A DNA stretch of 64,000 bases from a virus. Taxonomy: Duplodnaviria > Caudoviricetes. Both the position numbers and the translations under genes were made by a program. This document shows positions 1,662 through 61,121 of this stretch, piece after piece. A model generated the notes under the pieces. That model worked only from the letters and a program-made list of their open reading frames with translations, did not search any database and was not told the origin of the DNA. The stretch is taken from the IMG/VR virus record IMGVR_UViG_3300009082_000959; one strand, written 5' to 3'. Each line of letters opens with the position of its first letter. Position 1 is the stretch's first letter.

Positions 1662-1696
1662 GTCGCAACACCCAAAAATGTTGCGTGGATTGAAAC
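1662..1696 (+). CRISPR. Solitary type I-C-like CRISPR repeat unit (no array)
   Basis: GTCGCAACACCCAAAAATGTTGCGTGGATTGAAAC: 5' GTCGC, 7-bp stem CGCAACA/TGTTGCG and 11-nt 3' handle TGGATTGAAAC, as in type I-C repeats. Confidence 0.8.
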
Positions 1697-2031: not shown

Positions 2032-3198
2032 ATGTTCAAATCCACGAAAACTACTTTACGGTTTGCTAATACTGGTAAACGAAATCACCTTGACAGTTTC
2101 CTCGACGAGTATCGTCGTGTGCTTGCGGTTTTCGTGGATTTGCTTTGGTCGCAAGAAAAGGTCCCAGTGTTGTTACCAGCTTCCGTCACGAAACCAATTC
2201 AAACTACTTCGTGGCTTTCCGCGAGAATACTACAAGCCGCAGGAAAACAGGCCAGCGGAATAGTTCGCGGAACTCGTAAAAAGCAACAACAACGAAAGTG
2301 GGTTTACGACAAACTCCAAACCGAAGGCAAATTTAAACAAGCACGAAAACTAAAACGAATTATAGACAAAGTCATTATAACCAAACCAAATATAAATCAA
2401 GTAGAACCAGAATTAGATTCGCGTTTTGTAAAACAGGACTGGACCAACTCAACTACTTTTGATGGGTTCGTGACTTTGTCTTCGTTGGGTAATCATTTAA
2501 AAATTGTGCTACCAGTAAAGCGTAATAAACATTTCAATAAATTGCTCACCGCTGGAACACTTAAAACCGGTGTCAGGATTTCACGTAATGCTTTGACTTT
2601 TTGTTTTGAATTACCTGACGTCAAACCGCGTTCCACAGGAACTACACTGGGAATAGACTTGGGAGTAAAAAATACTATCTCTACTTCCCAAGGATTTTCC
2701 AGTAAGCCCGACAACCACGGACATACACTGGATTCCATCAATACACGATTGACACGGAAAACAAAAGGTTCTAAAAACTTTAAACAGACACAAACACTAC
2801 GAACTAATTACATAAACTGGTCTGTGAATCAACTTAATTTAGACCAAGTTAAGACCGTAAAACTCGAAAACTTAAAACATTTTCGTAAAGGCGTAAAAAC
2901 TTCACGCAAACTAACCCACTTCACCTACACAGAGATTCAAAGTAAAGTAGTAAATTGTTGTAATTTACTTGGTGTCCAAGTAGAATACGTAAATCCTACT
3001 TATACTTCTCAAAGGTGTAGTTGTTGTGGTTGGGTTCGTAGTAGCAATAGGAAAGGCAAACAGTTTAAGTGCAAAGCCTGCGGCTTCGCTGTGGATGCGG
3101 ATTTAAATGCTGCCTTAAATATTGCCACTAACCTTCGGCCTATTGGCCGTGAGGAACGATTGCTCCACAAAAACCGCAAGGGTTTTTACTGGAAGTAA
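2032..3198 (+). CDS. tnpB: TnpB/Cas12f-like RNA-guided nuclease, no tnpA
   Basis: RuvC-I GIDLG, RuvC-II VKLENL, zinc finger CSCC...CKAC, RuvC-III DADLNAA; catalytic D/E/D intact. Start at 2032 (MFKSTK) preferred. Confidence 0.85.
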   Translation: MFKSTKTTLRFANTGKRNHLDSFLDEYRRVLAVFVDLLWSQEKVPVLLPASVTKPIQTTSWLSARILQAAGKQASGIVRGTRKKQQQRKWVYDKLQTEGKFKQARKLKRIIDKVIITKPNINQVEPELDSRFVKQDWTNSTTFDGFVTLSSLGNHLKIVLPVKRNKHFNKLLTAGTLKTGVRISRNALTFCFELPDVKPRSTGTTLGIDLGVKNTISTSQGFSSKPDNHGHTLDSINTRLTRKTKGSKNFKQTQTLRTNYINWSVNQLNLDQVKTVKLENLKHFRKGVKTSRKLTHFTYTEIQSKVVNCCNLLGVQVEYVNPTYTSQRCSCCGWVRSSNRKGKQFKCKACGFAVDADLNAALNIATNLRPIGREERLLHKNRKGFYWK

Positions 3199-4560: not shown

Positions 4561-5353
4561 ATTACTTTTTAGAAACACACTGGCGGAAGAAAACGAATTA
4601 CAAATAGCAAAAAAATATTTTGATATAAAACAGTATCGTTCAGAAATTACTCCGGGAGCGTTGATTATAGGCAGATATTCTGTTCTACCTTACTATAATG
4701 AACTGGAAAAAGATATACTAAAATTAGGCGGCAAACTAATTAACTCCTACGAAGATCATCTTTATATTGCTGACATAAAAAATTGGTATCCTGATTACCG
4801 AGACATAACGCCTATGACTTGGTTCGACCCATCAGAAGCAATACGGTCCGACTTTAACGGTTCCTTTGTTTTAAAAGGCAATGTGAATTCTCGAAAGCAA
4901 TTGTTTAACACACATATGTTTGCTGCGAATAAATCTAATATAATGAAAGTTTATTGCAAATTATTAGACGACACTCTTATTCAATATCAGGGAATTTGTG
5001 TCAGAGAGTTTGTGAATTTAATCAACTACGGCAAAGACCAAGTAACCGGTTGCCCAATATCAAAAGAGTTTAGGCTTTTTATTTTAGACGGCAAAGTTCT
5101 TTCAAAGGGATATTACTGGTCAAATTTTGTTGAAGAAGCAGAAAATCCGGACCCAAACGAAATACCAGAAGACTTCATACAAGACGCAATCAAAAGATGC
5201 CCAGTAAGATTTTTTGCTATTGACTTGGCCCAGAAAACTAACGGTGATTGGATGGTAGTTGAATTAGGAGATGCACAGATGGCTGGTCCATCTTGTAATG
5301 ATTTAGATAGTTTATATAAAAACTTAAAGGAAAATCTATGCAAAAAAGTATGA
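4553..5353 (+). CDS. ATP-grasp protein (R2K-like clade)
   Basis: SFVLKG, ICVREFV, KEFRLFILDGKV, YYWS, FFAIDLAQ...WMVVELGDAQMAG. Confidence 0.7.
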   Translation: MIELLFRNTLAEENELQIAKKYFDIKQYRSEITPGALIIGRYSVLPYYNELEKDILKLGGKLINSYEDHLYIADIKNWYPDYRDITPMTWFDPSEAIRSDFNGSFVLKGNVNSRKQLFNTHMFAANKSNIMKVYCKLLDDTLIQYQGICVREFVNLINYGKDQVTGCPISKEFRLFILDGKVLSKGYYWSNFVEEAENPDPNEIPEDFIQDAIKRCPVRFFAIDLAQKTNGDWMVVELGDAQMAGPSCNDLDSLYKNLKENLCKKV

Positions 5354-6609
5354 CAGATGTATATTTGAGTGTTTTAAAACACAAATGGCATTTAAGTGTG
5401 GCAAGAATGCAATTGTTACCAGAAGAAGAAATTAGATTATATTTAATGCCAACGATTAATGGCTATTATTGGCGCTCCATAGTTATAGTTAGTGGAAGTC
5501 AATGCAAGTATCAATGACATACATTTATATTTATGCACTCAAACATAAATGGTGTCTTAATTTATGTGGTTCAGTATTTAAGAACGAAATTTGTTTAAGT
5601 ATGAGACCGGCAAGGAGCAGTAATTGTTATATTTTTCGTGTAAAGGAAATCTATGCAAGCAACAATGATGTATGTATATTTAAGTGTCCTAAAATATGAG
5701 TGGGGATTAAGGTTGGGGCAAAAAAATCCAATATTACAAAACAACAACATTTGTGTATGCTTGACTCAACCAACAATGTCTGGCGGTTATGGTTATCGTG
5801 AGTATAATTATTTAATTAAGGCAAAACAATGAGACCGATTATAAAGTATACATATTTATATGTATTTAAACACAATTTTGGTTTATCCGTTGATGTTCTT
5901 ACAAAAAATGAATTAGTGTTACTTGCAACACCTCTAAATAACAATGATTATTGTCCCTTTCGAATATTTATTAAGCAGGTAAGATTATGCAAGCAAATAT
6001 GATGAGTTTGTATTTTTATACATTAAAATATAATTGGCATTTAGAGAATACCCATATATCGGTGAAAATAAAATTTACATCGACATTAGACCAAGCGTAA
6101 ATGGTTTTCATTGCTTCCATATTATAATTGAGGGAAACACATGCAACCTAAAATGAAAACCGTATATATTCTTAATTTGAAGCACAACTATTGTGTGGAC
6201 AGCGCAGAAATAATCGATAGCGAAATTACAATATATTTAAGGTCATCCATTAATAGTTTTAAACGGCATACTATTACGATATACGAGGATCAAGCAGCAT
6301 GCAATTAGATATGGTAGATTTATATGTTTATGTGTTGAAATCTAAATGGAGTTTGGAGCGTGAAACAATTATATACGAAAATATGCTTTGGATATATATG
6401 AGACCAAAACTTAATAGTTTTTACCGTTATCGTATTACAATTAAAGGAAATTTATGCAAGAGTCTATGAAAGCCATATATATTCTTAATTTAAAATATAA
6501 TTACCAAATATTTAAAGATAAGATAGTAATAAACAATAATAAAATTAGATTAACTGTTGGTGGAATTCAAGTTGAGATGCATTTAAAATGGAGGAACAAA
6601 GATGATTAA
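5338..6609 (+). repeat. Array A: 8 tandem overlapping short ORFs of the 'MQxxM..YI.VLK' family (starts 5338, 5502, 5653, 5829, 5987, 6141, 6299, 6454)
   Basis: Manual translation, e.g. MQKSMTDVYLSVLKHKW, MQVSMTYIYIYALKHKW, MQATMMYVYLSVLKYEW, MQPKMKTVYILNLKHNY, MQLDMVDLYVYVLKSKW, MQESMKAIYILNLKYNY. About 160-nt period; several have AAGGA SDs. Confidence 0.8.
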
Positions 6610-7201
6610 TAAAGAGTTTGCAAATATAATGAACAATGCAAAAGATTTAACAATTGGGCAAGTATTTAAAATAATTACTCATCTTAAATTCAAAACAGTG
6701 GCCGCCGTTGTTGCTTTTTTTGTGGCGATCGTATCAGGTTCTTTTGTGATAGGTAGATATTCCTATCAAGAAAAAACGGCACTTACCCTCGATAGTCCAT
6801 TTGGTATGAGGTTGCTGATAAGTGAAAAACAATACGAATTCAAAAACCTAATCTTAATGGAAGACCCAATTAATTTGGCAGACAATAGTGTAATACTAAC
6901 TATACGAGAAATACAAAATGCCTTTGATATAGTTCCGATAGGAAAAATAGTTGCACGAAAAGAAAAAATTGAGTTGCCAGGAGTTTTTGGGTTGTTCAAT
7001 TTTAAGTCAATCGGAGTGGCCAAAGCATCAGAAGAGTTTAATTGGAACGGCCACGAGAACGATATGAATTTTAAGGAAGTATTTATTGATAGCAACACTA
7101 TAAACAGATACTACGAAGACGGTTGTATTTTAGAGTATAAAGTTTGCGAGGATAGAAAATCTAACAAAGGTTCTTTTAGATGGATACAACAAAATCATTA
7201 A
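6602..7201 (+). CDS. Hypothetical membrane protein
   Basis: Hydrophobic segment VAAVVAFFVAIVSGSFVIG; SD GGAGG upstream. Confidence 0.6.
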   Translation: MINKEFANIMNNAKDLTIGQVFKIITHLKFKTVAAVVAFFVAIVSGSFVIGRYSYQEKTALTLDSPFGMRLLISEKQYEFKNLILMEDPINLADNSVILTIREIQNAFDIVPIGKIVARKEKIELPGVFGLFNFKSIGVAKASEEFNWNGHENDMNFKEVFIDSNTINRYYEDGCILEYKVCEDRKSNKGSFRWIQQNH

Positions 7202-8629
7202 TGCAGGGTAGTATGAAAAATTTATACCGCGATGTATTTAAACATAATTTTTATGCAAAGGAAGTATATATTATTGAATGTTATACTTTAATTCGGTGTT
7301 TAAATAACCATCACGAATATGAAGTTTATCACTGTTACTTTAAATAAAGGACATTATTAATGCAATCAGAAATGATGAATGTATTTAAATGTGGAAATAG
7401 AATAAATGCTATTTGGATTATGGAAGGATATGTTGATATTTATTTTAAAGATTCTTTTTGGTATTCTTATTTTTTAGGTGCGCTTATTTTGAATAACGGA
7501 GTCACAAATGCAATCAGATATGATAGCTTTATACTGTGATGTATTTAAATGTAATTGTAAGATATCAAGTTATAAAATATTACCAAAATTTCGCGCAAGT
7601 TATGGAACACACAGAAACCACATTAGAGTAAGTTGCGAGGGATCATCACAACATGATTTTTATATTATTTGGTATAAAAAATGATGCAACCAGAAATGAT
7701 AAGATTATATAAAAATATGTTTAAATGTCATTACAAAATAGTAGAGCATTACTTTATAGAAAACAACAGTGATAATAAAAAATGGGTAGTTGTAAGGGCT
7801 AATGGTGGGTTTCCATATTATACTGCTCACTTTATTGAGTGTGCAAATGAATAATATACAATCATTGATGGGAAATAATATGAAAATGCTGTATGCCGAT
7901 GTATTGAATCGTGGCCTTAAAATTGTGAAAGCGCCCATTTTTCGTGGCAAATTTATGTATATTTTCGTCGAGGTTGGTCCGGGAAGAAATGTATGTAGTA
8001 TATTTCGCTGCACAATTTAGGTGAGAAGACAATGCAATTTTATATGAAACAATTATATTGCGATATTTTTATGAGAAAATATAAAATAATAAGTTATAGT
8101 GATGAATTAAGATATGTTAATTCTAATGAAAAAATTATTGAAATAGTTTGCGGTGAGAATGGGTATATTTATCATTATTCTATCCATCACAAATAAGGAA
8201 ATCTACTAATGCAATTTTATATGAAAGTGTTATATCGGGATTATTTTAAATATGGATATAAAATAAACAATGTATATATCGATGATTTATCTAATGATAT
8301 TTTAAATATTTATTGTCATACATGTGAGTATCAAACATATACCATTAGAATTGGCTTTAATTATATATATGACATATGAAAAGTATATAATTAAAGCCAA
8401 TTGATATTTATAAAAGTTTAAATTTATGTATGTTTGTTTTAAAGATTTAATGTAGCTTACTCATATACTATAAGGTTTAATAAAAATGCAATATAGTATG
8501 AGACAATTATATATAGATATATTTAAATATGGAGAAAAGCCAAAAAGTGCTACTATATCACATAAAAAAATTGTGATATTTAGTTCATATGGTGATTCGC
8601 TACTTAGATATACGATAGATTTAGTTTGA
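7201..8629 (+). repeat. Array B: 8 recognisable (+1 decayed) short ORFs of the same family (starts 7201, 7360, 7508, 7684, about 7844, 8032, 8209, 8486)
   Basis: MQGSMKNLYRDVFKHN, MQSDMIALYCDVFKCN, MQPEMIRLYKNMFKCH, MQFYMKQLYCDIF, MQFYMKVLYRDYFKYG, MQYSMRQLYIDIFKYG. Confidence 0.8.
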
Positions 8630-8653
8630 CACTTGTGTTTTTTTAACTATACT
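8626..8653 (+). promoter_or_regulatory. Sigma70-type promoter
   Basis: TTGACA-N16-TATACT upstream of SD AAGGAG and ATG 8671. Confidence 0.65.
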
Positions 8654-8670
8654 ACATATCAAGGAGACAA

Positions 8671-8889
8671 ATGAATAGAGAAATTTTAAGAAACAAAGCG
8701 AAGAAAATGTATAAAGAGAACATAAAAAATGTTGCAAAGAATCAAAGGATATCTTTCAATGAGTTTTTTAAACGATACCGCGAGTCTCTCAAAAATAAGA
8801 GTTCAGACATCGTTGAGACAGAAGGCCAAGAAGACTTTGACTTGGAACAAGTAGCGAATGTGAATGAAGTAACGGAAAAGAAAGGTTGA
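8671..8889 (+). CDS. Hypothetical protein
   Basis: ORF with strong SD and upstream promoter. Confidence 0.65.
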   Translation: MNREILRNKAKKMYKENIKNVAKNQRISFNEFFKRYRESLKNKSSDIVETEGQEDFDLEQVANVNEVTEKKG

Positions 8890-8919
8890 TAAAGTAAATA
8901 TAATACTCTTAACAATTAA

Positions 8920-11639
<2,720 letters not shown>

Positions 11640-22903: not shown

Positions 22904-25900
22904 ATATATGCAAGATTTTTATAAATCTGTTTTTAAATACGGGACGAAAATTATAAAAAAATACGAATTATGTAGTAATAATTTGTCCATTGATTTAAAA
23001 AACAAGGGTGGGTATTCCGGGATTAGATATTATTTTTATTGCAGGATAAATAAATATGATATTGACTGACGAAGAAAGAATATTGTATATTAAAAGAATA
23101 TATATTTATCTTTTAAAAAAAAAGGAGTGATAGCAAAAAGCCATACACGTGATGCTTTTTATCATAGCGTAGTTACGATTGGTGTTCCGGGAGACATATT
23201 TTGTGCAGACAATTATTTATCTGAATGTAGGTGATTTGTGCAATACGGAATGATGAATGTTTATATTATGTATTTCAAACGCAAACATAGTATTTATGCC
23301 GGCGGTAAAATTAAAGAATTTAATAATATATATTTGCGTGTAGATTTTATAATTAATGGGTATGTTAGGGGCTACACTATACTGCAAAAATAATGTTGGA
23401 GTAAGTTATGCGCGAATCTATGAAAATGGTTTATGTTAAATTTCTAAAACACAAACAAATAATATACAAATATGAAATTTATCAATATTTTGGCAAAGAA
23501 TTTGTAGCGATAGAGTTTAATGGTTTTGGCGTTTGGCCTTACCGAGTTTCAATAGAGGTAATATAGGTGGCAGACTATGCAGCAACATATGAAAATAGTT
23601 TATATTAGATTTATGAAAAAACAACAACAAATATGTGCATATAAAATTAGACTCAATTATCTGACGGTAGATTTTAATATATTCGAAAGTATTTGGCATT
23701 ATTATATCAATTTTTAAGAAAGTTAAATCATGCAATACGAAATGATGCAAATATATACTAAAATTTTAAAACATGGTCGTAAAATTGATTCTTATAGTAT
23801 GTTGTTTGATTCTACTTGTTTAGAGGTTAATATTTTTCCTTCCACTTATTTTATATAATATCGGAGTAGTTTATGTGTGGTCTTATGAGGATAGCGTATA
23901 TATGTGTTTTAAAAAAGAATTGTGATATTTGTATATCCGATCGCATTCCAACTACATCTGGGTATGATAAAATTAAATCAAAACCACCATCGAACGACAT
24001 CTGCTTTTATATTTCGGATAAATTTTAATCATGCAATATGAAATGATTGACCTTTATATTGAAATCCTAAAATATGGTTCCAAAATTAATAAATATTATA
24101 TGGTTGGTAATGATTATTTGGGTTTAGATATTTATATTTTCCATTTTTATATTAAACAGAAAGAACAACAATGACTGATGCGATGAAGAAATTTTATATT
24201 TATGCTTTAAAATATGGATACGGGATTTACATAAATGAGTGGCGGTCAATTAGCCTCGGCGGCGATAGAATTTGTATTGAGCTTTATCCTCCCACGAAAA
24301 ATTCTTAATTTTGTTTTAAGGTAAAATAATGGACTGTATGATGCAAGTATTTTATATTAGTATATTAAAACAAAAATATATACCAGAAATAACAGAAAAG
24401 TTAATAACTTCTGATGGCCGTCATAGGGTTTTTATTAGATTAAAAGGCGTAGATTATTCTGAATTCTTTTTTACAAGCGAGTTTTGATTATGCAACAATC
24501 TATGGTAAATTTATATATTGATGTATTAAAATATAATTACCACATTGTGGGAGCATTTTCAGCAGAATATTATAATTTATATTTCACATTGCGTGAAGAC
24601 TACACACATTATTTTTTTATAGAGAAAACGTGAACACTCACTCAATATACATTGACTTTTTCAAAAACAAATTCCCAATTGTTTGGTATCACGTTTTTGA
24701 GAGCGGCGGAACTTGGTGGGTTGAAATCGAAACAGAATGGAATAAATATTTTATACGACAAGGCAAACAATGAGTATTCCAAATAGTATGCAGTCAATAT
24801 ATATTCAAATTTTAAAATATAAATGGTCAATAACAAAGTCTTATCCAGTAGTGAGATTTTGTGGCATTGATAGTGTGGCCATAGAAATAAATTGCCTGCC
24901 TTATATACTGGTGCAAAGGGCGCAAAATGACAGAATGTGGCATTAATTCTCTATATATTAGTTTATTTAAAAACAAACACACAATAAAAGATTATCGAAT
25001 ATTTAACCTTAATGGTTTTTCATTTATTATCATCTACACAAATGAAAACTTCAACAATAAATATTATGTTCTTTCAGGAGTCTAAATGTATAATTATATT
25101 GCACCAAATGGTTTTTGCAAAAATGCAATTTTTGGCATATATATTCAAATTTTCAAAAACAACTGGTCCGGCAGAGTGGTTGGAAGAGTAAATGAAAAAT
25201 TATGCACAAGTATAACAATAGAATTAACAGACCCAAAAAATAAATATAATTGTGAAACAATTTATAAAGAATTATTTGCCGGAGATTTACGGACACGATA
25301 ACAAAATGACAGAAAATATAAGACAAATTTATAGGCAAGTTTTTAGGAACAAATGCACCTTGTGGCAAAAAACAGACACTGAAATAATAGTGATGCATAA
25401 CACTTTACAATTATATAGACTTTATGTTTGTGAGGAGCCGGTGCCAGGAATTTATTTTTTCTAATGAGGTAAAAATGGATTGGAAAATAGCAAACATTTA
25501 TCGCGGTGTTTTTAAGTTTGGCGAAAAAATCGAAGTTATAAAAGCAAACAAAAACTTTTTAATGGCCAGCACGACAGATTGTGATGGTTATAAGACTTTA
25601 TATTATTTATATAGTCTTGAAAGCAAATAGGTAGAGGTATGACAATGCTACCATATCGAACAATTTATCGCAGAGTTTTAAAATATAACTATACTATGAC
25701 ACAAAGAAATATAAATAATTATGGGATACATAGTGAAATTTCTTTTTGGTTGGGGCAAACACTAGCAAGCTCATTTATTGTTTATGGTAATGGAGTTTAT
25801 TCTTGGAGAACTTAATGGCAATTCCAATAGCGTGTGAAATGACATATATAAAAGTTTTAAAATACGGCTACACGATGGAACAAACGAAAAAATGCTCACC

Positions 25901-28758
25901 GAAGCCAGAAACAGCGTAGAAAAAGCAAAGAGAAATTTTTTGATTATGAAATTAGCGGGGTTAAGTCGCAACACCTAAAATGTTGCGTGGATTGAAACAA
26001 ACAGAATTCTATGGCCCTCACTTTATTTGGACTGGAAACCGATGCAAGTAGAAATGAAATATTTATACATAAACATACTTAAATATAACAACAAAATATA
26101 TAAAATGAAGCTCTCCAATTACTGGCTAATATTACAAGCAAACGATGAAGCACAAAATTATCATAAAGTTTATATTATATACGACAAGGAAATAAATGAC
26201 TAATGGCATGAAAGATTTATATATCTATGTATTTAAAGAAAATTGCAAAATATATAAACCATTTTATTGGGGTGACTACCTTGTGATTAATTGTAAATCA
26301 TCATTTAGTGATCCTGTCTTTGATTGCTGGATTAAAACATGCAAGTAGATATGCAAAATGTTTATATAGATTTCTTTAAGCATAATTACACAATAAAACA
26401 AACATCACATTATAGTAAGTGGTGGAAACTTGTTATTAGAAATAGTAAGGGAACTTATTATTATAACTATTATTATCGAGTGAAACATAAATGACAGAAG
26501 AAATGCAAAGTTTATATACAAAGATAATTAAGTATAATTACAAAATATATGAGGTAGGATATTTGGACGCTTGGTGTATATTATATGTTAAAAGTAAAAG
26601 TGCTAATGGGTTTTACACACAAAATTGTTTTATTGAATGGAAACATGAATGACTACTGGTATGAAAGACATTTATAGATATTTCTATAAGCATAATTATA
26701 CAATAGAAAAAATTCCAACCCATTTAGGCAATACATTAGAGCTTCGCATAAAAGATAAGAACGATTTATCTTGCTCTTATTTTTTCTTTTATGGTGGAAG
26801 ATAAATGATTAAAGATATGCAAAATGTTTATATAAATTTCTTTAAGTATAATCACACAATAAAACAATATGGTAATTGGTGGCAACTTGTTATTGGAAAT
26901 AGTAGTGGAGGCTATTATTACAACTATTGTTGTCGGGTGGAAAAGTAAATGACTAATGGCATGAAAGACATTTATATCTATGTATTTAAGTTTGGTTTCA
27001 AAATATATCAAAATCACACTTACCGCGATTTTTGCGAGTTTTATGTGGTTGGCCCTCTTGAAACTTTGCGTCTTTGTGTAATTGATTAGTGGAGAAATAT
27101 TATGATACCGAGTGCAATGAAATTTGTATATATAAAATCATTTAAGGGTGGTGATAAAATTCATGCATATCACAATCATCACGAACTTGGTTTTCTTGAA
27201 ATTTGTTTTAAGCATTGGTTTGTTGGCAGTATAATAAGGCGTTTTATTCACTATGGAAAACGAAAATGCAAGTAGCAATGAAAGACATTTATATAAGTGT
27301 ATTTAAATACAATCATAAAATATATGATTATTATCCCTATGATGATTTATGCGTAATCTATATTAAAGATAAATACAACATTTTTACGGGGAGATATAAT
27401 GTCAGACATGCAATATGATATGAAAAAACTTTATATATCTATTCTTAAGCATAAAGCGCCCATACGCTCATGCACTAGACATACCAGTGGATTTTATGTG
27501 ATTAAGGCATATGTTAAAACAATTTATGTAGAAAAATTAAAGAGATACTATATTTTTAGATTACCGACGAGCAAAAAATGAAAGAGCACATAAGAGAAAT
27601 TTATATAAGTTTGCTCAAACGTAACTACACAGTATATGCATGTTTTAGGTCACCTGATGATTACGAATATATAATCGATCTTCGAGTAAGCTATTATTTT
27701 GCTTTCGATAGACATTTTCTTCGGCCACGGGAGTTGGAATGCAAAGAGATATGATAAAATTGTATGTTGATTTTTTTAAGTATAATGTTGCAATATATAA
27801 GATGGAAACGCCAGAATATTTGGAAGATACAGTTATGGTGTTTTGTGTGTCAAAATCTAATCTTTATTATTTTAATTATTGCACTATTAGAAAGTAATAT
27901 ATGATGCCACTTAATATAAAAAGCATTTATTTGAAATATTTTAAATTTAACCTTCCGATATTATCATTTTCTGAATCTGGATATGATGAGGGTGGATACA
28001 TAATTGATATTAAATCAACTCTTCCTACATATTTGGAGAGATATATTCTACTGCCAACATTATCTCGCCACACACTTGTTCGATTATAATATTTGGTGCC
28101 AAATGTCTTATGAAATAGCAACAATATATACCGAATTATTTAAGCACAAGGGAAGAATAATTGGTTTTAATCACTTAAACACTTACTATGACATAACAAT
28201 AAGTTTGTATGGTTCCTATGACGCGCATCACTTATATATTACTTAAAGGGAAAAATATGCCAGATAAAATTAGACATCTTTATATGTGTATGTTTGTTTG
28301 GGGCTGGACTATAAATAAAATAATTGAAAGAAATAACCATTATAGTATAGAAATTTTTTCTGATTCAATGAAGTATAAATATAATTATAGATTGGAAAAA
28401 TAATGATATTGCCATATAAAATTAATAATATTTATGTATTATTGTTTAAGCGTAATTGGATTGTGAATGAAGTAATTGAGAGAGATGAATGTTATGATAT
28501 TTATATATCTGCTTCACCTCGCATAATCAGCGCATGGAATTTATATAGATTGGACAAACAATGACTTGGGCAATGAACAGAATTTATTTTAGGTTGCTAA
28601 AACATAAAAATACAGTTGTTTCAGTAGATAAGCAAAATGAAATAAATGCATATGTTGTAAAATTACGCGACCAAACATCCCAGTGTGTTTATACTTACGT
28701 TCTTTATGACGATAATTCACCAGCAATAGTATTTAATAAAGGATCAAATAATGATTGA
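22896..28758 (+). repeat. Array C: about 36 tandem short ORFs of the 'M-x3-M..YI.VFKYN' family
   Basis: Manual translation, e.g. 22896 MSEYMQDFYKSVFKYG, 23730 MQYEMMQIYTKILKHG, 24031 MQYEMIDLYIEILKYG, 24490 MQQSMVNLYIDVLKYN, 26042 MQVEMKYLYINILKYN, 26196 MTNGMKDLYIYVFKEN, 26339 MQVDMQNVYIDFFKHN, 26805 MIKDMQNVYINFFKYN, 27739 MQRDMIKLYVDFFKYN, 28561 MTWAMNRIYFRLLKHK. About 160-nt period. Confidence 0.85.
25965..25998 (+). CRISPR. Second solitary type I-C-like CRISPR repeat unit, embedded in array C
   Basis: GTCGCAACACCTAAAATGTTGCGTGGATTGAAAC; differs from 1662-1696 only in the loop. Confidence 0.8.
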
Positions 28759-33390: not shown

Positions 33391-33868
33391 AGTTGGAGAA
33401 ATAGTATTTGACAAAAACGGAGAGCAAGTAAAAGTAATTAAATTTAATCGCAATGAATATATCGTTGAGCCAATCAATAAGCGTTCAGAAAAAGAATCAG
33501 AGCTATTTGCTTCAAAATTAGAATCAGAAAATTATAGTAAAGTAAAAGATTTATTAATAGATAAAGAAAAAAAGTTAGATAAAATTAAATATAATAAGAT
33601 GGAAATAAATAAGTGTAAGAAATTAATAGAAAAATTTAATCGTAAATTAGAAACCGCGCAAAATAAAATATTAACATTAAAGTCTTTTCCAGATAGATTG
33701 ATAAACAGTATTTATAATTTAAGAGATGAAATATACGACAAAAAATCATATATTATAAATTGTAAAACTAATAGTCGCTACCTAAAAGAAAATATAAAAG
33801 ACATTGATAGAGATATAGAAGAACTTAAAAAAGAGCATTTAATTATTCAGTTGGCAGGTATTCAATGA
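33374..33868 (+). CDS. KxKVGD / coiled-coil / LxG-tail family protein
   Basis: MKPKYKVGEIVFD...KEHLIIQLAGIQ. Confidence 0.65.
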   Translation: MKPKYKVGEIVFDKNGEQVKVIKFNRNEYIVEPINKRSEKESELFASKLESENYSKVKDLLIDKEKKLDKIKYNKMEINKCKKLIEKFNRKLETAQNKILTLKSFPDRLINSIYNLRDEIYDKKSYIINCKTNSRYLKENIKDIDRDIEELKKEHLIIQLAGIQ

Positions 33869-34380
33869 AACCAAAATATAATGTTGGGGATATAGTGCTT
33901 GATAGGCACCAACACGCATTAAAAATAATTGATATACAAAAAACTAATGGAAGAATAAAATATTTTCTAAATTTTGCCGAGCCCATAGAAGCAGATGGTG
34001 AGAGTTTGTTTAAAACAAGAGATGATGTTATACGATTTAATAATATGGAATTTTTATTGGAAAGAAATTACGAAACAAAACGAACTATTAAGTATTACAA
34101 AAAACAAAAAAATAAGAACCAATCGATGCTGAAAAAGAATAAGGAAAAACTTCGTTGCATGAAAATAGAGTTGAAAAATAGAAAACGGCAGAATCTTGCA
34201 ATTTATGGGATATCTAAAAATATTGATAAGTTAGAGCAAACAATTCAACAAAGAATACGCAAAATTAGTGCAATTAATAGGATATTTAAAGATTGTGATG
34301 CCGAACAAAAAGAAATTAATGATAGTATTAAAGAACTTGAAAAAGAATACTTAATACTTTATTTAGCCGGAGTAAATTAG
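33865..34380 (+). CDS. KxKVGD / coiled-coil / LxG-tail family protein
   Basis: MKPKYNVGDIVLD...KEYLILYLAGVN. Confidence 0.65.
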   Translation: MKPKYNVGDIVLDRHQHALKIIDIQKTNGRIKYFLNFAEPIEADGESLFKTRDDVIRFNNMEFLLERNYETKRTIKYYKKQKNKNQSMLKKNKEKLRCMKIELKNRKRQNLAIYGISKNIDKLEQTIQQRIRKISAINRIFKDCDAEQKEINDSIKELEKEYLILYLAGVN

Positions 34381-59461: not shown

Positions 59462-60055
59462 ATGTTCGTGCCGCTTAGAAAAGCGGTTGAATTAACGGGT
59501 CTACACCCAAACACTTTAAGGAAATATGCAGACCAAAACAAAATCAAAGCAGTCAGAACTCCCTGCGGGAACCGGTTGTTCGACACCGATTCACTTCCGG
59601 GCCAACAGGCTCAGCGATCAGCCACAGTCTGCTATTGTAGAGTTAGTTCAACCAAACAAAAATCAGGTCTCGCTAGACAAGTTGTTGAACTTAGAACCCA
59701 ATTCCCCCAAGCAGACATCATCCAAGATGTGGGATCCGAGCTCAACTTCAAAAGAAAAGGGCTTAGGTCCTTATTGGACCGATTGCTTCAAGGAGATCGT
59801 ATCACACTTATCGTGGCTCGCAGAGACCGGCTCTGCCGGTTTGGATTCGAGTTGCTTGAGTATTTGGTCACCAAAAACGGTGGAGAAATCATGGTTCTCG
59901 ACCAACCTGAAACAAGTCCGCAATCAGAATTGGTTCAAGACTTGTTGTCAATCATACTTGAGTTCTCTCGCAGAGTCCCAGGACTCCACAGATACTACGA
60001 TGATATCAAAAAAGATACGACTGTTACCAACTCAACAACAGAAACAGCAACTTAA
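59462..60055 (+). CDS. tnpA: IS607 serine recombinase/transposase (MerR-HTH + resolvase)
   Basis: GLHPNTLRKY, YCRVSS, DVGSELNFKRKGL, RDRLCRFGF, ELVQDLL. Confidence 0.95.
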   Translation: MFVPLRKAVELTGLHPNTLRKYADQNKIKAVRTPCGNRLFDTDSLPGQQAQRSATVCYCRVSSTKQKSGLARQVVELRTQFPQADIIQDVGSELNFKRKGLRSLLDRLLQGDRITLIVARRDRLCRFGFELLEYLVTKNGGEIMVLDQPETSPQSELVQDLLSIILEFSRRVPGLHRYYDDIKKDTTVTNSTTETAT

Positions 60056-61121
60056 TTCGTGGATAAACGGTTTTCGTTTTGTTTATAATCAGTCTTTGGA
60101 GTATGCACAGAAGCAAACAACTACTCCATCGTGGTTTAAAACTAAAAAGCAGTTGTTAGATCAGTTACCCTCTTGGACTAAACAAATTCCCTATCAAATT
60201 AAATCAATTGCTATAAAGGAAGCATTTGATAACCTAAGACAACGGAAAAAACAAGCAAAATTTAAACACACTAAATTTAAGATGCACTTTAAGTCTAAGA
60301 AGGAACCACAACAATCGTGTTATTTGCCTAAGTCTGCGGTTTTGACAAAGGGAATTTATCCAAGGTTGCTGGGGAAACTTAAATACACAGAATCACTGCC
60401 ATCCAATATTGGTGACTCTCGTTTAGTTTACGTTTACGGGAAATTTTACTTAACTATACCAACAACAAAGCAACGGTCTTTAACCGAGAACCAAGGCAGA
60501 ATCGTTGCTCTCGATCCAGGTATAAGAAAGTTTATTACTTTCGTAAGTCATGACAGTGCGGGTTGCTTGGCAACCCATGACATAGGTAGGATTTATAGAT
60601 TATGTTTTTATTTAGACCAATTAGTTTCCAAGACAAGCAAGGCCAAGTCTAAACAAAAACATAATTTACGAAAAGCAGCAAACCGTATTCGTGAAAAAAT
60701 TAAAAACTTAATAGATGAACTACACAACAAAGTTGCCTATTTTCTTGTTAATAATTTTGACCTAATTTTACTACCAACTTTTGAAACACAACAAATGGTT
60801 TCCAAAGCACATCGTAAAATAGGATCAAAATCAGCCAGGGCCATGATGACTTTCAGTCACTATAAATTTAAGCAGAAACTAAAACACAAAGCCTTTGAAT
60901 ACGGGAAAGTAGTAGTTGATGTTTGTGAAGCCTATACTAGTAAAACCAATAATTTTACTGGCGTGGTGGATAAAAAATTAGGCGGAAAAGAATACGTATT
61001 AGTTGGTGGGAAAAAAGTGGATCGAGATATAAATGGAGCCTTGGGTATTTTACTTATGGCATTGGGAGATACACCCTATTTGGACAATTCAGTCCACAAT
61101 TGCACTGCTAATCATTATTAG
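60000..61121 (+). CDS. tnpB: IS607 TnpB with Fanzor-like rearranged RuvC site
   Basis: KIRLLPT start; VALDPG; ILLPTF at the canonical RuvC-II position; VCEAYTSK; DRDINGA. Frame is open from 59526, overlapping tnpA. Confidence 0.9.
   Translation: MISKKIRLLPTQQQKQQLNSWINGFRFVYNQSLEYAQKQTTTPSWFKTKKQLLDQLPSWTKQIPYQIKSIAIKEAFDNLRQRKKQAKFKHTKFKMHFKSKKEPQQSCYLPKSAVLTKGIYPRLLGKLKYTESLPSNIGDSRLVYVYGKFYLTIPTTKQRSLTENQGRIVALDPGIRKFITFVSHDSAGCLATHDIGRIYRLCFYLDQLVSKTSKAKSKQKHNLRKAANRIREKIKNLIDELHNKVAYFLVNNFDLILLPTFETQQMVSKAHRKIGSKSARAMMTFSHYKFKQKLKHKAFEYGKVVVDVCEAYTSKTNNFTGVVDKKLGGKEYVLVGGKKVDRDINGALGILLMALGDTPYLDNSVHNCTANHY

Follow-up and report, generated by a model that had tools for sequence, protein, structure and literature searches.

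Solitary repeat units (SRUs) are CRISPR repeat copies that lie outside any array, and 2,103 viral SRUs were catalogued from IMG/VR3 and GTDB proviruses (PMC10651486). For 83% of them, the subtype agreed with that of the system in the host itself (PMC10651486). Some SRUs act as RNA anti-CRISPRs (Racrs). RacrIF1 acts by locking Cas6f together with Cas7f into an aberrant complex (Camara-Wilpert et al. 2023, PMC10651486). RacrIC1, from a Bifidobacterium pseudocatenulatum prophage, lies 11 nt downstream of acrIC5, is co-transcribed, and restores plaquing against type I-C (PMC10651486). The Racrs that were tested had been selected for a promoter within 250 bp and were highly expressed (PMC10651486). 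The type I-C processing protein Cas5c (Cas5d) acts on a hairpin with a 7-nt stem and a pentaloop, preceded by a 2-nt overhang and followed by an 11-nt 3′ overhang starting with UGG (PMC8524198). Cas5c recognizes the cut site and the UGG and tolerates altered loops and 5′ overhangs (PMC8524198). Two repeats of this kind are described here from a huge phage, and their sequence places them among the type I-C viral SRUs.

The window is the 64,000-nt stretch of DNA that was analyzed, part of a 105,248-bp record (IMGVR_UViG_3300009082_000959). The genome is that of the published huge phage PPR-W_PHAGE_36_0, 223 kb in length, from prairie-pothole wetland sediment (Al-Shayeb et al. 2020, PMC7162821). 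This identity was assigned because a 54-aa protein and a TnpB-like protein of the window exactly match its GenBank supplement, and a 138-aa protein encoded upstream of the 54-aa gene is also encoded on the 223,498-bp NCBI contig. Window coordinates equal contig coordinates minus 32,001. Table S1 of the original publication scores the genome N for CRISPR-Cas, Cas1, Cas2, and host spacer match, and assigns 3.7% of its taxonomic profile to Proteobacteria, with 92.5% unknown (PMC7162821). No mention of the two repeats was found. A homolog of ribosomal protein S21 is encoded by the phage some 5.6 kb before the window begins (L178 4408–4734), and the rpS21 phylogeny gave no host confirmation for PPR-W_PHAGE_36_0 (PMC7162821, table).

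The two repeat copies and their parts are as follows:

1662–1696, + strand: solitary repeat unit 1, 35 nt, GTCGCAACACCCAAAAATGTTGCGTGGATTGAAAC, exact match
1662–1663, + strand: GU overhang of unit 1
1664–1670, + strand: 5′ stem arm of unit 1
1671–1678, + strand: loop of unit 1, CCCAAAAA
1679–1685, + strand: 3′ stem arm of unit 1
1686–1696, + strand: 11-nt handle of unit 1, UGGAUUGAAAC
25965–25998, + strand: solitary repeat unit 2, 34 nt, GTCGCAACACCTAAAATGTTGCGTGGATTGAAAC
25967–25973 and 25981–25987, + strand: stem arms of unit 2
25974–25980, + strand: loop of unit 2, CCTAAAA
25988–25998, + strand: handle of unit 2

Unit 1 had been reported in a first-pass annotation made from the sequence alone, and it is present exactly as written there, in both sequence and position. 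None of 100 shuffled sequences contained a match to its string. Across the 105,248-bp record, a scan that allowed mismatches detected two copies only. As RNA, both form a 7-bp stem (CGCAACA/UGUUGCG) with an 8- or 7-nt loop, preceded by a 2-nt overhang and followed by the 11-nt tail, with fold energies of −8.4 kcal/mol for unit 1 and −7.9 kcal/mol for unit 2. Unit 2 differs from unit 1 by one substitution and one missing A, both within the loop, and the stem and handle are identical. When unit 1 was folded in a 133-nt context, the hairpin was absent from the minimum-energy fold. The Cas5d/Cas5c cut of unit 1 is predicted between G1685 and U1686, after PMC8524198; the I-C anatomy and the 11-nt handle that the annotation had proposed agree with this source.

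The units lie 24.3 kb apart in unrelated surroundings. Likeness ends at the repeat borders, and flank alignment scores equal chance. A larger mobile element or duplicated block was considered and rejected, as flank similarity is at chance. The window is about 32% GC, all sizeable genes are on the + strand, and both repeats are oriented in the sense of transcription (crRNA sense).

Membership in the type I-C repeat family was examined with covariance models. Rfam detected no family at gathering score in the window, and loose thresholds returned only CRISPR-DR5 and CRISPR-DR9 at E values of 1–5. These matches were uninformative, so real I-C arrays were collected for a dedicated model. Scanning species genomes, metagenomes, and viral contigs for the repeat pattern yielded 47 distinct I-C repeats, each present at least three times per array. 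In their alignment the 7-bp stem is 99.7% paired, and 31 cells are changed on both sides. The model built from these repeats scored unit 1 at 36.3 bits (E 6e-6) and unit 2 at 36.5 bits (E 5e-6), and both matches are full length with all 7 pairs formed. Over the 64-kb window the model found only the two units, with the next best match at 10 bits. The 5′ GUCGC and 3′ GCGUGGAUUGAAA(C/U), which are invariant columns across the 47 array repeats, are present exactly in both units, an end match that is partly circular because GTCGC and GCGTGGATTGAAA were fixed in the pattern used to gather the training set. What the model tests independently is therefore the hairpin and its spacing.

Both units carry the 2-nt 5′ overhang, 7-bp stem, 11-nt 3′ overhang, and cut-site context G|UGG of a Cas5c substrate. 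They depart from the pentaloop and the total length of 32–33 nt, with loops of 8 and 7 nt and lengths of 35 and 34 nt. Genuine arrays with 7–9-nt loops exist (L003, L004, and L079). The fold and the covariance model together bear out the type I-C form first proposed for unit 1. The closest described arrays are those with 36-nt long-loop repeats (L004, L003, and L079/L087). Like the units, these have the form GTCGC...GCGTGGATTGAAAC, a GCAAC/GTTGC stem start, and 7–9-nt loops. They differ in being arrayed with 36–40-nt spacers beside cas genes, in having GC-rich stems, and in overall sequence, with about 80% identity. Relative to the nearest array repeats (L003 and L004), the seventh stem pair is changed on both sides, from G-C to A-U, and pairing is kept.

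The subtype label rests on locus L004, where the closest-class repeats (GTCGCAACGC...GCGTTGCGTGGATTGAAAC) flank Pfam-identified Cas3, Cas5d, Csd1, and Cas7. This locus (4685–11044 of Ga0209656_10002939) encodes cas3, cas5d, csd1, and cas7, with no cas4, cas1, or cas2 between cas7 and the next array. Its two flanking arrays have different 36-nt repeat variants, and the second starts 168 nt after cas7. Two further loci contain lone copies. In a Sporosarcina MAG (L010 3400–3434, + strand), a lone repeat of variant sequence, GTCGCATCACCTAGCAAGGTATGCGTGGATTGAAAC, lies about 415 nt past an 8-repeat I-C array and on the opposite strand; it is followed about 30 nt later by a terminator-like hairpin and T-run and may be a host crRNA-like regulatory RNA. 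The 188-kb virus IMGVR_UViG_3300023257_000008 (L087, L108, and L122) has a 13-repeat array of a 36-nt I-C-type repeat plus two lone diverged copies, with stems unlike the array repeat and each other.

The solitary state of the units was examined by searching for partner repeats and cas genes. No partner repeat, even degenerate, was found above chance within 150 nt on either side of the units by an unfiltered model and local alignment. A handle-like TGGACTGGAAAC about 30 nt after unit 2 was considered and rejected as weak, having no model score and not exceeding chance. Six-frame searches of the 105-kb record returned no match to Cas5d, Cas7, or Csd1 (Cas8c). The absence of a neighboring repeat at spacer distance and of a cas operon, both reported in the first-pass annotation, was thereby upheld, the latter also by the authors' own table. 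The units do not form a CRISPR array or CRISPR-Cas locus, that is, at least two repeats at spacer distance with cas genes. They are intergenic, belong to a known repeat family, lie on a mobile element, and have neither partner repeats nor cas genes. With no array and no cas genes, they fit the published SRU class and its Racr candidates (PMC10651486), as had been suggested for unit 1. Like other viral SRUs they match a repeat family and lie on a virus; they differ in having no identical or near-identical known array repeat. Their repeat was not found in the portion of the PMC10651486 supplementary text that was available.

The lone repeats could instead belong, as orphan or regulatory units, to a CRISPR-Cas system that the phage itself encodes on the unsequenced remainder. 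Some huge phages bear a I-C variant without Cas1 and Cas2 (PMC7162821), and the record is estimated to be 26% complete. The effector genes Cas5d, Cas7, and Csd1 are nevertheless missing from 105 kb, and the 223-kb contig is scored N for CRISPR-Cas with no effector (PMC7162821), which makes this explanation extremely improbable.

Unit 1 lies between two genes that are neighbors in related phages. The features of this region are as follows:

1209–1625, + strand: upstream gene, 138-aa putative zinc metallopeptidase with HExxH, weakly SprT-like or Peptidase_U49-like
1626–1734, + strand: insert specific to this lineage, about 109 nt in all (36 nt, then unit 1 with 35 nt, then about 38 nt), from alignment with L180 and L183, ends uncertain by a few bases
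1759–1923, + strand: downstream gene, conserved 54-aa ORF, CDS 33760..33924 in the published GenBank file
1934–1965, + strand: hairpin, 13-bp stem followed by UUUU, −22 kcal/mol, z −3.9
2032–3198, + strand: TnpB-like gene with a Cas12f1-like TNB domain, E 2e-18

The 138-aa protein matches the Pfam SprT-like family at E 1.4e-4, below the curated cut-off. Contigs of related phages encode homologs of it that are 51–62% identical, and some of these homologs match PF10463 weakly. The 54-aa ORF has 80% and 67% amino acid identity to the ORFs at the same position in L180 and L183. In several related phages (L180–L184), the peptidase-like gene (weakly Lit-like) is consistently paired with a highly conserved small ORF of 54–63 aa, and the pair sits downstream of a PIF1 helicase where that stretch is covered. 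The small protein is better kept (67–80%) than its peptidase-like neighbor (51–62%).

The spacing within the gene pair is 133 nt in PPR-W_PHAGE_36_0 versus 10–27 nt in related phages, with values of 10 and 25 nt in L180–L184. The covariance model detected no I-C repeat in the relatives' loci (L180–L184). Unit 1 is thus a lineage-specific insertion between conserved genes, acquired and not left over from ancestral sequence. The first-pass annotation had named as a refuting case that the unit proves to be the tail of a full array in close relatives; the relatives have neither array nor repeat at the syntenic site. The insert, at 36 + 35 + about 38 nt, has the size of a spacer-repeat-spacer segment of long-repeat I-C arrays (L004 spacers are 36–40 nt), which may hint at its origin or be a coincidence.

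The insert size bears on the possibility that both units are neutral relics, fragments of host or phage CRISPR arrays picked up by recombination that are functionless and have not yet decayed. This is consistent with the spacer-repeat-spacer dimensions, with the lack of a promoter or acr neighbor, and with the frequency of solitary I-C repeats on viral contigs, where singletons make up 75 of 108 strand-loci among the IMG/VR matches listed. Several properties of the units argue against it. Every functional position is intact in two dispersed copies whose flanks share nothing, and both copies are sense-oriented. The AT-rich stem is fully paired, which suggests long residence under constraint. 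The 24-mers of the flanks match no viral contig and so give no sign of spacers. Neutral relics are accordingly judged unlikely, though they deserve some weight.

Unit 2 lies within a tandem array of micro-ORFs:

25921–26041, + strand: intergenic gap around unit 2, about 121 nt, inside the micro-ORF array

Neighboring gaps in this array are mostly −50 to +20 nt. The gap is similarly symmetric around the repeat, with 44 + 34 + 43 nt. Three other unusually long gaps of about 120–170 nt, by a rough ORF list, are found at 23070–23237, 27276–27398, and 28090–28208 and contain no I-C repeat.

Both units are placed in leaders, 62 and 43 nt before the next start codon, in sense orientation, and the insertion of unit 1 falls exactly between the two members of a conserved gene pair. 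Such a placement would suit a Cas-dependent switch, in which host Cas5d cuts the phage mRNA between the peptidase-like and 54-aa genes and inside the micro-ORF array, and so alters downstream stability or translation only in CRISPR hosts. A switch of this kind is without precedent, the downstream genes of the two units are mutually unrelated, and relatives keep the same gene pair without the element. It is therefore given little credence.

The region downstream of unit 1 was also compared with relatives. Unit 1 had been described as part of a short unit ending at a terminator at 1935–1968. The hairpin is real, but the conserved 54-aa gene (1759–1923) lies between it and the repeat; the stretch up to the hairpin therefore reads as an mRNA segment and not a dedicated RNA gene. 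The hairpin either terminates the small gene or is a left-end structure of the TnpB insertion, and it is probably outside the repeat unit. The relatives have no TnpB here, and the gene that follows their small ORF overlaps it. Because related phages lack TnpB at this site, the TnpB-like gene looks like a separate insertion that adjoins the repeat insert. A link between the repeat and the adjacent TnpB was rejected, as unit 2 has no nearby TnpB and a conserved gene separates unit 1 from TnpB. A near-consensus promoter-like site, TTGACA-17-TATTAT, is located at 1996–2024 just upstream of the TnpB-like gene. A second, longer TnpB/OrfB_IS605-like gene (59526–61121, 531 aa) has an HTH_OrfB_IS605 domain.

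Promoters and neighbors of the units were searched for signs of anti-CRISPR organization. No convincing promoter was found directly upstream of unit 1; the nearest sigma-70-like site, at 1392–1421, is 240 nt away and inside the upstream gene. None was convincing near unit 2 either. For both units, the sigma-70 consensus that was searched may not be the host's. Racrs frequently neighbor acr genes; the neighboring genes here had no Pfam or PHROG match to Acr or Aca. The gene at 1209–1625 is the probable co-transcription partner of unit 1.

RacrIC1 is the nearest functional precedent. As in that case, a protein gene is followed closely by a lone phage I-C repeat, which is predicted to offer Cas5 the same hairpin-plus-handle substrate. 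RacrIC1 differs in that it follows acrIC5 and its inhibition was demonstrated, whereas the neighbor here is a peptidase-like gene without an Acr link. The present phage also differs in having two dispersed copies, a longer loop, an AT-rich stem, and a huge-phage genome.

The preferred reading, held with a little more confidence than doubt, is that the units are co-transcribed RNA mimics that would bind host I-C Cas5 and Cas7. It was chosen because the Cas5c features are intact, variation between the dispersed copies is confined to the loop, and the AT-rich stem is still paired, and because both units are sense-oriented and unit 1 was acquired. The loop, the sole site of difference between the copies, is irrelevant to Cas5c (PMC8524198). 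The host is presumed to carry a type I-C system. As the genes of the region are all on the + strand and both repeats are in crRNA sense, the repeats would be transcribed within phage polycistronic mRNAs. Host Cas5d (Cas5c) would recognize the 7-bp hairpin and the following UGG and cut, and the mRNA leader of the 54-aa gene would bear a repeat-derived 5′ handle if Cas5d cuts. Cas7 would then load on the adjoining phage RNA. Cas5 and Cas7 would be drawn off real crRNAs and interference weakened, as in the Racr mechanism demonstrated for RacrIF1 and RacrIC1.

Against RNA mimicry stand the lack of a promoter, of acr neighbors, of a known host, and of any array that shares this stem. For a sponge, a copy number of two is low; moreover, the loop is longer than usual, and the hairpin is lost in the 133-nt fold.

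Other repeat-derived RNAs were compared. Phage Cracr RNAs and host CreA/CreR mini-arrays are likewise CRISPR-repeat-derived RNAs, and phage Cracrs would load host Cas proteins. They differ in consisting of a repeat-spacer(-repeat) with a spacer matching a host promoter, where a Cracr is expected to show at least 9 PAM-proximal matches to a host cas or creT promoter; here no second repeat or target was found. If the units were Cracrs, the repeat would give the 5′ handle, and the 30–40 nt downstream would be a partial guide sending Cascade to repress the host's own promoter of cas genes or of a CRISPR-guarding toxin. Cracrs aimed at I-C have been published (bioRxiv 10.1101/2024.10.29.618823). 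Cas5 of type I-C occupies the 5′ handle, so that one repeat placed upstream could in principle prime assembly on the RNA that follows (PMC8524198). This assignment is nonetheless distinctly unlikely. No second repeat lies downstream, even a degenerate one, and the sequences that follow the two repeats are unrelated to each other. They had no match above chance to the fetched I-C loci, a set that gives the comparison little power. For unit 2, TTC plus 16 nt gave 5 genome matches, which is the chance level, and none is near an I-C repeat. Two seed matches of TTC plus 9 nt in L017 and L041 were rejected as targets, being outside cas context and at chance. The flanks had no match within their own genome beyond 11–13-mers.

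A broader variant is that a lone repeat turns the phage mRNA leader into a guide-like RNA programming host Cascade, beyond simply absorbing Cas proteins, which would silence a host locus or gate translation of the downstream phage gene in CRISPR-bearing hosts only. As Cas5 of type I-C cuts the repeat itself and remains bound to the 5′ handle, one repeat upstream may suffice for Cas7 loading. On that account the 36 + 35 + about 38-nt insert would mark a working module captured from an array. This proposal is speculative and considered very unlikely.

Arrays that could name the host of the putative mimics were sought in three collections. No array with the stem GCAACA/TGTTGC was found in 185,579 species genomes (GTDB), JGI metagenomes, or IMG/VR. 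Scans for exact or near-exact copies of the repeat likewise returned nothing from the GTDB species genomes or IMG/VR. The proposal that the repeat be matched to databases to identify the host thus did not succeed, and the metagenome scan returned related arrays only. Contigs of the nearest arrays are 54–59% GC versus 32% for the phage, and their repeats are the long-loop class noted above, about 80% identical to the units. Searches for close relatives of the TnpB and peptidase-like proteins in genome or viral contigs, also made to find the host, returned none. The region had no match among GenBank phages, and the two intergenic segments that hold the units gave low-complexity matches only (E at least 0.009). 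Among sequencing runs, none from RNA was listed as containing the sequence, and the DNA is contained in the probable source sample alone.

Overall, the two units are most likely a fresh example of a published phage counter-defense and change no principle. They are distinguished by the huge-phage setting, the with/without comparison in relatives, and the divergent AT-rich long-loop repeat. Together they constitute a natural experiment, in which the same gene pair occurs with and without the repeat insert and the copies vary only in the loop that Cas5c ignores. If active, the units would be RNA anti-CRISPRs in a huge phage listed by its authors as having no CRISPR-related feature. They would then add a means of counter-defense for huge phages and point to a type I-C-bearing host.
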